Positions 21,845 through 23,862 of a DNA stretch of 23,862 nucleotides are shown here, piece after piece (the first letter of the stretch is position 1; each line of letters opens with the position of its first letter). The position numbers were made by a program, and so were the translations under genes. Source of the DNA: a virus. Lineage: Duplodnaviria; Heunggongvirae; Uroviricota; Caudoviricetes. The notes below the pieces were generated by a model that saw nothing but the letters and a program-made list of their open reading frames with translations, searched no databases and was not told where the DNA came from. The stretch is taken from the IMG/VR virus record IMGVR_UViG_2778261619_000009. One strand, 5' to 3'.

Positions 21845-22414
21845 ATGAATTTGGAGAAAGGCGGACGAGGCGCTATAGAGCGCATGGTAGAAGCTTATGG
21901 ATTCAAAACTCGACAGGCGTTGTGCGATCATTTAGGAATCTCTAAAAGTACACTCGCCACACGCTACATGCGTGACTCATTCCCAGCAGAATGGGTAATC
22001 CAGTGCGCCCTTGAAACGGGCACCTCGCTTAATTGGCTCACAACCGGACATGGTTCAAAGCAAACTTCAGGTAATACAAATACTATGGAAGTTGCTAAAT
22101 ATGTATTATCTGATGGTGCCTTGCGTGAAGACGGTTTTTATATTTTTGATAAGGGATTTCTACCCTCTACGTTTAAAAAACCTTTTGTCATCACAGATAA
22201 CAATTCTGAATTTATTTGTGATAAAGAATTTGATGATATACGTGATGGTAAATGGGTAATAAGTATTGATGGCGAAGTAACGATCCGTGACATTACTCGT
22301 TTACCCGGTGGAAGAATCTTCGTCGAGGGTGGAAACAGAGCCTTCGAATGTAAGATAGAAGACATTGAAATAATTGGTAAAATTATAAGTTTAACAGTCA
22401 AGTATGTTAAATAG
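21845..22414 (+). CDS. cI: CI-type immunity repressor (phage 186 CI-like)
   Basis: Track ORF starts at GTG 21839; ATG 21845 with GGAG SD gives 189 aa; N-terminal HTH (RQALCDHLGISKSTLATRY) and separate C-terminal domain; 186 CI is ~192 aa. Confidence 0.75.
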   Translation: MNLEKGGRGAIERMVEAYGFKTRQALCDHLGISKSTLATRYMRDSFPAEWVIQCALETGTSLNWLTTGHGSKQTSGNTNTMEVAKYVLSDGALREDGFYIFDKGFLPSTFKKPFVITDNNSEFICDKEFDDIRDGKWVISIDGEVTIRDITRLPGGRIFVEGGNRAFECKIEDIEIIGKIISLTVKYVK

Positions 22415-22429
22415 TACCGGGAGGAAACT

Positions 22430-22621
22430 ATGCTTGGTAAGGTATTTTTTGTGGTTTTGTCATGTTCTTTGTTATTAAACCCACTAACTACCTATGCTAG
22501 AAATTATCCCTGCTCAGGGAAAAAGGGAGGTGTTTCTCACTGTACCTCAGATGGCAAATTCGTTTGCAATGATGGAACTATTAGTAAATCCAAAAAAATC
22601 TGTACTAAAAACTCACGATAA
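22430..22621 (+). CDS. Small secreted cysteine-containing protein (63-aa precursor), AT-rich moron
   Basis: GGAGG SD 5 nt before ATG; N-terminal signal-peptide-like segment ([23 protein letters not shown]) followed by a ~40-aa Lys-rich peptide with four cysteines; very AT-rich relative to neighbours. Confidence 0.55.
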
Positions 22622-22809
22622 CTTTTGCTTTTATATCTGCGTCTAAAATAAAAATGAGCCGCAGGTTAACCGCAAAAGTTACATGCTCACATAGCAAAAA
22701 GAATAGCCAACTTCATTATGGCTTCAGTGAGATGTATGGTCGTAGGATTTCATACATTGACACTGGTTATACATACAGTAAAAATGCTCTCTACTGGAGG
22801 GCATTTTTT

Positions 22810-23862
22810 ATGGCAGTACGAAAACTCACCACAGGGAAATGGCTTTGCGAATGTTACCCCGCCGGACGAAGTGGGCGTCGTGTGCGTAAACAATTCGCCA
22901 CCAAAGGCGAAGCTCTGGCTTTTGAGCGTCACACTATGGAAGAAACCGAATCAAAGCCATGGCTGGGCGAATCAGTGGATCGTCGAACCCTGAAAGACGT
23001 GGTTGAGCTATGGTTCAAACTACATGGTAAATCTCTGACTGCTGGGCAGCATGTCTATGACAAATTGCTGCTGATGGTTGACGCTCTGGGCAATCCTCTT
23101 GCAACCGATCTCACCTCTAAAATGTTTGCCCACTATCGAGATAAACGCCTGACAGGCGAGATCTACTTCAGCGAGAAATGGAAGAAAGGAGCAAGCCCGG
23201 TCACCATTAACCTGGAGCAAAGCTATCTAAGTAGTGTTTTTAGCGAACTATCCCGTCTGGGCGAATGGTCGTATCCGAACCCACTGGAGAACATGCGAAA
23301 ATTCACCATCGCAGAAAAAGAGATGGCATGGCTTACCCATGAGCAGATTGTTGAATTACTGGCTGATTGCAAACGTCAGGACCCAATTCTAGCACTGGTA
23401 GTTAAGATATGCTTAAGCACAGGCGCACGCTGGCGAGAAGCCGTAAATCTTACTCGTTCACAGGTGACCAAATACCGAATTACCTTTGTAAGAACGAAGG
23501 GGAAGAAAAACAGAAGTATCCCTATCAGTAAAGAGCTTTACGAAGAGATCATGGCGCTTGATGGGTTCAATTTCTTCACAGACTGCTATTTTCAATTTTT
23601 ATCCGTGATGGAAAAAACGTCTATCGTGCTCCCTCGCGGTCAACTCACACACGTTCTGCGCCATACGTTTGCGGCGCACTTCATGATGTCGGGTGGAAAC
23701 ATTCTGGCCTTACAAAAAATTCTCGGACACCACGATATAAAAATGACTATGCGTTACGCACATCTGGCACCGGATCATCTGGAAACGGCGCTCCGTTTCA
23801 ATCCTCTGGCAACGCTGCCAAGTGGCGACAAAGTGGCGGCAGCGGTTGGCATTACCCCGTAA
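22810..23862 (+). CDS. int: Tyrosine integrase (P2/186-type)
   Basis: Track ORF 22654..23862 trimmed to ATG 22810 (MAVRKLTTGKW..., GGAGGG SD); C-terminal catalytic signature ...HVLRHTFAAHF...LGHHDIKMTMRYAHL; stop codon is the last triplet of the window. Confidence 0.9.
   Translation: MAVRKLTTGKWLCECYPAGRSGRRVRKQFATKGEALAFERHTMEETESKPWLGESVDRRTLKDVVELWFKLHGKSLTAGQHVYDKLLLMVDALGNPLATDLTSKMFAHYRDKRLTGEIYFSEKWKKGASPVTINLEQSYLSSVFSELSRLGEWSYPNPLENMRKFTIAEKEMAWLTHEQIVELLADCKRQDPILALVVKICLSTGARWREAVNLTRSQVTKYRITFVRTKGKKNRSIPISKELYEEIMALDGFNFFTDCYFQFLSVMEKTSIVLPRGQLTHVLRHTFAAHFMMSGGNILALQKILGHHDIKMTMRYAHLAPDHLETALRFNPLATLPSGDKVAAAVGITP

Follow-up and report, generated by a model that had tools for sequence, protein, structure and literature searches.

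The question raised by the right end of the virus record IMGVR_UViG_2778261619_000009 is what a small gene for a probably exported peptide is doing between the immunity repressor gene and the integrase gene of a prophage. We analysed the whole 23,862-nucleotide (nt) stretch of this Caudoviricetes sequence, hereafter called the window, and its right end is the lysogeny region of a 186-like (P2-family) Escherichia coli prophage. In this region the plus strand carries the repressor gene cI, a 192-nt open reading frame (ORF) running from ATG to TAA, and a tyrosine integrase gene (int), while the minus strand carries cII (PF06892) and an apl-like gene. A first-pass annotation made from the sequence alone had described the ORF as an AT-rich moron encoding a secreted four-cysteine peptide. 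The ORF is almost certainly a prophage-borne member of the YdcA family (PF27300; NF007463; phrog_6000). This is a large family of no known activity, with 763 clusters at 90% identity in a word-indexed profile search and 464 representatives at the 50% identity level in an exhaustive profile search, and its function is the central question.

The YdcA-family gene and its place behind cI

Several models and names identify the product of this ORF. Specifically, it scores 115.8 bits against the NCBIfam equivalog NF007463 (PRK10040.1-2), relative to a curated cutoff of 93, with residues 5-63 aligned to model positions 1-58 of 58, and residues 3-59 align to positions 1-56 of 56 of phrog_6000, a profile of phage proteins of unknown function, with an E-value of 1.9e-34. 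PF27300 ('YdcA') is recorded in a large protein database on P0001, a cluster representative that is 98% identical to the prophage protein, and the name given to the latter by RefSeq and the NCBI Prokaryotic Genome Annotation Pipeline (PGAP) is 'YdcA family protein'. A local Pfam scan of the ORF, with a model set that contains no YdcA entry, returned GULLO2-like as its sole match, with a chance-level E-value of 0.075. The homology search that the first-pass annotation had called for thus leads to a catalogued family and not to an unknown peptide. With curated NCBIfam, Pfam and PHROG models and a RefSeq name the gene as an object is already known, and therefore it is no new kind of element. The same region is present at 99.9-100% identity in E. 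coli chromosomes, where it adjoins the host gene rcdA and where PGAP labels the three genes in order as 'phage repressor protein CI', 'YdcA family protein' and 'phage integrase'. Overall, 628 of 5426 complete E. coli genomes, or about 12%, carry this ORF lineage (at least 80% query coverage), and it is annotated as an intact coding sequence in every E. coli record listed.

The protein has a predicted Sec-type leader with a lysine at position 4, a hydrophobic stretch at residues 5-16 (9-residue Kyte-Doolittle means of up to 2.7) and then NPLTTYA. Cleavage is predicted after TYA, with Thr at -3 and Ala at -1, and this Ala is invariant among 27 aligned relatives. The predicted mature peptide of 40 residues contains seven Lys and two Arg versus two Asp (isoelectric point 9.7) and four Cys, while a fifth cysteine, Cys12, lies inside the signal peptide. 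The earlier description of a secreted, Lys-rich, four-cysteine peptide encoded by a small gene with its own Shine-Dalgarno sequence between cI and int is therefore borne out at the level of the sequence. Columns that are invariant in the 27 sequences are P27, C28, S29, K32, G33, G34, C38, F44, C46, D48, G49, S52, S54, K55 and C58, and the resulting motif PCSGxKGG...C...FxCxDGxxSxSKxxC with its four Cys also holds across 63 diverse core domains. The family consensus reads N-[TY]-P-C-S-G-K-K-G-G-[IV]-S-H-C-x(2,3)-G-K-F-[VI]-C-N-D-G-x-x-S-x-S-K-K-x-C. Among 149 listed representatives the domain normally begins right behind the leader (median start residue 26), and 94% of family domains are positively charged overall, with a mean net charge of +3.3.

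When divergence is measured over a 32-codon core with the window copy as reference, nearly all differences among related prophages are synonymous. There are eight synonymous and no non-synonymous differences in locus L006, 11 and one in L005, and 21 and two in L011. The ratio of non-synonymous to synonymous divergence (omega) is 0.015-0.025 where synonymous divergence is computable, with synonymous sites being otherwise saturated. The signal-peptide codons, on the other hand, diverge freely (proportion of non-synonymous differences, pN, about 0.44; 17-29% identity between lineages) yet the segment that they encode stays hydrophobic. The ORF is thus a real gene under strong purifying selection and not a chance reading frame. 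The core is also far more conserved than the neighboring phage genes in more distant prophages. It is 97% identical to that of the window in the Enterobacter copy where cI is 43% and Int 54% identical, 91% identical in the Yersinia copy (cI 35%, Int 48%) and 76% identical in Haemophilus phage HP2 (cI 38%, Int 51%).

The position of the gene is conserved too. Four homologues with differing leaders and flanks, from E. coli (P0012), Klebsiella (P0028), Enterobacter hormaechei (P0019) and Yersinia enterocolitica (P0034), each lie directly after a 186-type cI and before int, and in Enterobacter just 2 nt separate the end of ydcA from the int ATG. The Haemophilus phages HP2 and S2 (Peduoviridae, Hpunavirus) have a 60-residue homologue in the same slot, which begins with the final base of the cI stop codon and is absent from the annotation of these records (HP2 is NC_003315). 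The order of genes in these phages is likewise cI, the homologue and, further downstream, int, with the difference that HP2 has an extra gene, orf1(S), between the homologue and int. This next gene (L001, 3112-3876) codes for a secreted protein with PF12869 (tRNA_anti-like, OB-fold), and since it is secreted and sits between the ydcA homologue and int, the HP2 lysogenic operon contains two exported proteins from cI to int. The placement behind cI is thus fixed from E. coli to Haemophilus prophages. As far as literature searches reach, this cI-linked placement across Peduoviridae, including the HP2 gene, seems not to have been stated before. Absence of the ORF from related prophages with the same junction had been named in the first-pass annotation as an observation that would speak against its proposal, and what we observe is conservation from E. 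coli to HP2.

Coliphage 186 itself has the same repressor family, the same divergent apl/cII arrangement and an int downstream of cI. It differs in that cI and int overlap by 1 nt with no gene between them, and in its record pL and pE are annotated as the promoters of a lysogenic operon, cI-int-orf69. A tblastn search of 50,697 phage records with the YdcA protein also returned no 186, P2 or other coliphage record. In the window the ydcA-family ATG is 15 nt beyond the cI stop codon (22412-22414). A promoter scan found no promoter-like site between cI and the ORF, a plus-strand terminator scan found no terminator-like site between cI and the ORF or after the ORF, and promoter-like sites in the AT-rich region showed no excess over shuffled sequences. 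The gene is probably co-transcribed with cI in lysogens, given that it lies inside the equivalent of the 186 pL/pE operon, overlaps the cI stop codon in HP2 and is 2 nt from int in Enterobacter.

These results change how the term moron can be applied to the gene. Its absence from 186 and its atypical base composition (35.4% GC, and 29.7% at third codon positions, versus 51.8% for the whole window) agree with that description. However, low GC is not confined to the gene, because the AT-rich block (about 22080-22800) starts inside cI, covering its C-terminal half (22081-22414, 33.8% GC), and runs on through the spacer before int (36.7%), and therefore AT-richness is not a specific mark of this ORF. 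The sense of the term that fits poorly is that of a recent insertion with its own promoter and terminator. Conservation of the core amid diverged cI and Int proteins (35-54% identical) that share this placement, together with saturated synonymous sites, favors long residence under tight constraint over recent insertion.

Relatives on host chromosomes, in secreted nucleases and, probably, in Legionella Dot/Icm

The prototype of the family is E. coli K-12 YdcA (b1419), a 57-residue protein encoded on the chromosome between rydC and hokB. This protein, known from E. coli and Shigella, is described as of unknown function and is predicted to be periplasmic (PMC11340327). Deletion of ydcA sensitises E. 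coli W to 300 mM 3-hydroxypropionate, and the same study cites earlier work on YdcI-controlled induction of ydcA at pH 5 (PMC7642389). Like the prophage protein, K-12 YdcA has a signal peptide followed by PCSGxKGG[IV]SHC...F[VI]CNDGxxSxSKKxC with four Cys. There are also several differences. K-12 YdcA belongs to another subfamily, with the window protein scoring 68.5 on NF007462 relative to a cutoff of 118, it has nine non-synonymous changes in the 32-codon core (pN 0.12), and its gene has the rydC-hokB setting in contrast to a prophage lysogeny operon. The presence of hokB beside K-12 ydcA led us to consider a type I toxin, which we rejected given that the conserved part is a hydrophilic, exported domain and that the hokB adjacency is absent in the prophages.

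Among the best 120 of the 763 clusters all proteins are single-domain and 46-77 residues long, and those with named sources are almost all from Proteobacteria. Phage settings outside Peduoviridae include the tail-gene region of Moraxella Mcat phages and Acinetobacter Vieuvirus phages, and family members are also found on Acinetobacter and Rhizobium plasmids and in ordinary chromosomal settings. The neighborhoods of chromosomal homologues showed no consistent partner, with DsbC being two genes away in one lineage. One of the plasmids, pApiMCR53a (L009), is a five-gene MOBQ mobilisable Acinetobacter plasmid of 3916 bp with the YdcA homologue at 728-904, directly after a small TraD-like gene. Separately, the UniRef name attached to the E. 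coli prophage cluster is 'Conjugal transfer protein'. A literature search for 'YdcA family' found it named in one study, as poorly characterised, and judged by their titles most 'ydcA' papers concern unrelated genes of the same name (the Bacillus rhomboid YdcA, a Neisseria genetic island, a ColV plasmid).

A relative with an experimental structure is likely to be Dis2 (Lpg0823) of the Legionella Dot/Icm secretion system. The AlphaFold2 model of the prophage protein is a small beta-hairpin knot with predicted local distance difference test (pLDDT) values of 88-91 in the core block and a mean of 81. Foldseek searches with both the full-length and the mature-only models returned chain AN of 7MUC/7MUD, which is Dis2, as the top match in the Protein Data Bank (PDB), with 36-39% identity over 38-39 columns, probability 0.72-0.99 and a TM-score of 0.6 as normalised on the 40-residue query. 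At the sequence level the profile match to Dis2 has an E-value of 9.8e-5 that weakens to 0.12 without the leader. This first value is therefore partly driven by the signal peptide, and the relation was for that reason re-tested with the mature-only model, with hhalign and by a Pfam look-up. In hhalign the core matched mature Dis2 with 91% probability and an E-value of 1.1e-6, and a close Dis2 homologue has a precomputed PF27300 match. The Dis2 variant of the motif, 'KMGG...CNNG', is also seen in the family members P0066 and P0068. On this evidence we consider it likely that the YdcA family is homologous to Dis2, and Dis2, which matches the family profile in two stretches, appears to consist of two YdcA-like domains in tandem. 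Two other candidate relations were dropped. A core-only profile search of the PDB put low-density lipoprotein (LDL) receptor class A repeats (E 0.03-0.1) and lysozyme on top, which we take as a coincidence of Cys/Gly pattern because only half of the LDL-receptor class A module was matched. DUF3761, considered as a circularly permuted relative from its motif CxDGxxSxS...CSxHGGV, gave no Pfam match, even for P0065 with its three copies of the domain.

Cryo-EM density shows Dis2 as two similar lobes that are pinned by five disulfides and adjoin the outer membrane, with the model beginning right after AFA (PMC8486379). It lies on the outer-membrane-facing surface, where it touches DotC, DotD and DotK away from the translocation channel, and it is dispensable for assembly, with deletion having subtle effects on translocation (PMC12716638). 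Dis2 has the shared motif in the form CSKMGGINYC...LVCNNGxxS. It is exported, contains disulfides and abuts the outer membrane, and by fold and sequence no other PDB match is meaningful. On this analogy, and given the predicted location of K-12 YdcA, the mature prophage peptide is probably periplasmic with two disulfides. The two proteins also differ, as Dis2 has two lobes with ten Cys and five disulfides relative to one lobe and four Cys in the window protein, and is a stoichiometric part of a secretion machine whereas the prophage locus has no type IV secretion system genes. Neither feature expected of a cap component of the Dis2 type, two lobes pinned by five disulfides or a Dot/Icm-type machine at the locus, was found. 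Dis2 has been described as specific to Legionella and as having no PDB entry of similar structure (PMC8486379; PMC12716638), and the link to YdcA matters for the Dot/Icm field for this reason.

Fusions of the domain were surveyed in 50 family representatives of at least 110 residues among the 149 listed. Among partners of known activity only secreted nucleases recur, with three unrelated folds, specifically Endonuclease_NS (three cases), SNase (one) and PLD-like (one). In P0105, P0151, P0159 and P0174, which were read individually, the YdcA domain is N-terminal and just behind the signal peptide. VasL and DUF4124 are single-case partners. Two or three tandem copies of the domain occur in seven of the 149 listed representatives. 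As a separate observation, a second cysteine module, CxC...CxGPxGGxxC, is present in thirteen proteins. Both the relation of YdcA to the Dis2 lobes and the nuclease fusions seem, as far as literature searches reach, to be unstated before. The cI-linked placement, the Dis2 relation and the nuclease fusions are leads and not demonstrations. The tie to the immunity repressor across very diverged phages, combined with the strong constraint, provides a good handle for a simple genetic test, and the nuclease fusions provide a second, independent and testable lead to function.

What the predicted exported domain may do

The explanation that best accounts for these observations as a whole, to which we give about an even chance, is that the protein is a lysogen-expressed periplasmic domain that would bind a conserved anionic target in the cell envelope. 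As second cistron of a lysogenic operon cI-ydcA-int the gene would, from its order, be made together with the repressor in lysogens, and a terminator-like hairpin downstream would leave it on the cI side of an attenuation point before int. After export by Sec and cleavage behind TYA, the product would form two disulfides by oxidation in the periplasm, in the manner of Dis2, and the free domain would then dock on the periplasmic face of the outer membrane, at anionic lipid head groups and/or at outer-membrane lipoproteins. This docking would alter an envelope property of the lysogen, such as its tolerance to envelope or acid stress or the passage of incoming DNA or phage. Docking at that face in the way that Dis2 docks on DotC, DotD and DotK is a tentative proposal that we hold with somewhat less than even confidence. 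It is favored because it fits Dis2, the charge of the family, the VasL fusion and the phenotype of the host gene, and because a tether would explain the nuclease fusions too. In biological terms the protein may serve either to protect the lysogen against incoming phage or DNA or simply to make it tolerant to stress, and superinfection exclusion or lysogenic conversion, as suggested in the first-pass annotation, is possible.

Small exported phage proteins with the kind of role proposed there include T5 Llp and phi80/N15 Cor, which act in exclusion at the periplasmic face of the outer membrane. These lipoproteins obstruct one specific receptor, FhuA, with which they co-evolve. For the window protein no relation in sequence to Llp/Cor-type proteins was detected, its PHROG match being a family of unknown function and PADLOC giving none. 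The YdcA core is moreover too conserved across hosts for a receptor-specific blocker, as its very slow evolution argues against blockage of a specific, fast-evolving receptor and implies a conserved host ligand and not a fast-evolving phage target.

Several points weigh against an envelope-docking domain. PADLOC-DB has no defence-system family for the YdcA protein. The contacts of Dis2 may not transfer to a free single domain, as Dis2 is a two-lobe subunit of a machine, and the effects of deleting dis2 are only subtle (PMC12716638). Finally, a generic tether to the outer membrane would be expected on many kinds of enzyme, and the finding that only nucleases recur as enzymatic partners favors binding to DNA.

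The strongest rival is indeed that the domain binds nucleic acid in the periplasm, such that a basic knot rich in Lys, Ser and Gly (GxKGG, SxSKK) would hinder incoming phage, conjugative or transforming DNA; we regard this as possible but rather unlikely, and give a similarly low rating to its counterpart in the fusions, where the domain would hold secreted nucleases on their substrate. It draws on the fusions, in which no enzymes but nucleases recur and these have three unrelated folds, on the net positive charge of 94% of family domains, on the secreted OB-fold-like PF12869 protein encoded next to the HP2 homologue, and on the presence of the family on phages and plasmids that include the 3.9-kb MOBQ plasmid. 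Copies in the phage collection also come mostly from naturally competent hosts (Moraxella, Acinetobacter, Haemophilus), which may be a sampling bias. However, the single relative of solved structure, Dis2, has its protein contacts by the outer membrane and away from the channel (PMC12716638), and the nuclease fusions make up just five of the 149 listed representatives, with the best 120 of 763 clusters being stand-alone proteins. A tether under the outer membrane would account for these fusions equally well. A further proposal, which we consider improbable, is that YdcA behind cI has long been part of the lysogeny module in Peduoviridae of the 186/HP2 type and acts as a periplasmic stop on the entry of foreign DNA, whether from superinfecting phage, conjugation or transformation. 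Such a block would work either by DNA binding or by taking up a site near the outer membrane on which DNA-entry machines depend. If true, this would be the first function for a fold that E. coli YdcA has in common with the Dis2 lobes and with the N-terminal modules of several secreted nucleases.

It is also unlikely, in our estimate, that the gene is a plain fitness factor, an extra, repressor-linked copy of a host YdcA function in organic-acid or envelope stress that has no role in conflicts between phages. The core motif is common to chromosomal YdcA with a core pN of only 0.12, exclusion proteins are usually far less conserved, PADLOC gives no match, and both the 3-hydroxypropionate sensitivity of the ydcA deletion and the cited up-regulation at pH 5 (PMC7642389) are in line with such a role. 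This host phenotype, though, comes from a single study, and the strict place after cI in diverged Peduoviridae, beside a slot that can hold the candidate defence gene PDC-S20, hints at a phage-specific purpose. In addition, the E. coli hosts that were checked have ydcA on the chromosome already, and it is not clear what they would gain from another copy.

Lipid anchoring of the protein through Cys12, read as the lipobox cysteine in VVLSC/S (the slash marking the cut), is very improbable. V-L-S-C does fit a loose lipobox pattern, and one relative is labelled 'Lipoprotein' in UniRef. Cys12 is nevertheless confined to its lineage, with the Enterobacter, Plesiomonas, Yersinia, HP2 and K-12 leaders having no Cys, and an 11-residue signal peptide would be unusually short. 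The feature that is invariant throughout the family is instead the Ala at -1 before a mature N/R-x-P-C-S-G, and the structural model of Dis2 likewise starts immediately behind AFA (PMC8486379). The bacteriocin-like or toxin-like peptide that the first-pass annotation offered as an equal alternative is small, cationic, Cys-rich and secreted, as is the product of this gene, but we give it next to no weight in view of a Sec leader that ends in TYA and is not of the double-glycine type, the lack of an immunity, ABC-exporter or lysis gene nearby (the neighbors being cI and int), a K-12 chromosomal paralogue that has no partner gene, an intact coding sequence in the E. coli genomes listed, Sec export that in Gram-negative cells stops in the periplasm, and a conserved part that is a hydrophilic domain when type I toxins are hydrophobic membrane peptides.

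Features of the lysogeny region and of the interval before int

Coordinates of the gene and of the features around it are collected in Table 1.

Table 1. Features at the right end of the window, with the evidence for each.
Feature	Coordinates	Strand	Evidence
cI immunity repressor (186 type)	21845..22414	+	PF07022 and PF16452 matches; PGAP coding sequence of near-identical locus L003 maps here
Shine-Dalgarno sequence GGGAGG, 5 nt 5' of ATG	22419..22424	+	direct sequence reading
YdcA-family gene, 63 residues with signal peptide, stop included	22430..22621	+	NF007463, phrog_6000, PF27300, PGAP name, omega
Predicted signal peptide coding part, residues 1-23	22430..22498	+	hydrophobicity profile; -1 Ala invariant; sequence diverges freely
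Predicted mature domain, 40 residues, four invariant Cys	22499..22618	+	invariant alignment columns; AlphaFold2 model; best PDB match Dis2
Stable RNA hairpin starting at the ORF stop codon, without U-run	22619..22681	+	minimum free energy (MFE) -22.7 kcal/mol, z -3.9, 0/200 shuffles as stable
Variable slot, about 100 bp in the window; KAP-family NTPase gene in sister prophages	22622..22720	.	blastn of spacer against related loci; gene maps; PADLOC
Conserved int leader with promoter-like site and hairpin	22721..22809	+	kept in KAP-containing variants; promoter scan; folding
Tyrosine integrase, 350 residues, start MAVRKL...	22810..23862	+	PF24624 and PF00589 matches; PGAP coding sequence in L003

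The interval between cI and int is a cargo slot in 186-like prophages. Between ydcA and int the slot varies from about 100 bp in the window to nothing in Enterobacter, and in other E. coli and Klebsiella prophages it contains a gene for a KAP-family nucleoside triphosphatase (NTPase). This NTPase (L005, 3252-4583; L011 and L017, 5198-6529) matches the PADLOC candidate defence gene PDC-S20 with an E-value of 1.3e-171. In strain E2348/69 (L004, 3166-5632) cI is followed by a 307-residue protein annotated as CI and a second KAP NTPase, without ydcA. Just past int, HEC-04-like and SocA/Panacea genes are seen in other loci.

The part of the spacer of about 100 bp that holds the hairpin at the ORF stop codon is found only in prophages of the window/L006 type, and this hairpin could be a stabiliser of the transcript end or a processing site. 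The int leader that follows has a conserved promoter-like site, TTGACA-17-AAAAAT (22757-22785), and a 13-bp hairpin (22780-22808; AAAAAUGCUCUCU / GGAGGGCAUUUUU; MFE -18.5, z -5.6) that stops 1 nt short of the int ATG. This hairpin takes the int ribosome-binding site into its pairing and has a U-run behind it. At the corresponding place L011 and L017 have, as read by eye, hairpins whose sequence differs, and a compensatory change distinguishes the two. The promoter-like site would begin transcripts near the end of the 5' arm of the hairpin, and it is possible that read-through from cI-ydcA is attenuated in this leader such that only the proximal transcripts translate int. A 402-codon ORF from 22654 is an in-frame upstream extension of int, whose true start is set by homology and PGAP, and the upstream 52 codons are therefore non-coding leader. 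A match to the Rfam Phe_leader in the spacer, at 22.2 bits relative to a threshold of 55, was rejected.

Within cI itself the GC content falls from 48% to 34% at the junction of the N- and C-terminal domains, the low part being 22081-22414. Relative to L011 and L017, the N-terminal part of the repressor is 90-91% identical and the C-terminal part 57-58%, and the steps in GC content and in identity together suggest a recombination boundary inside the repressor gene. Finally, the 3' end of cI contains an antisense promoter-like site, TTAACA-17-TATAAT (11/12 matches; 22382-22410, minus strand), which may be a chance occurrence in AT-rich DNA.

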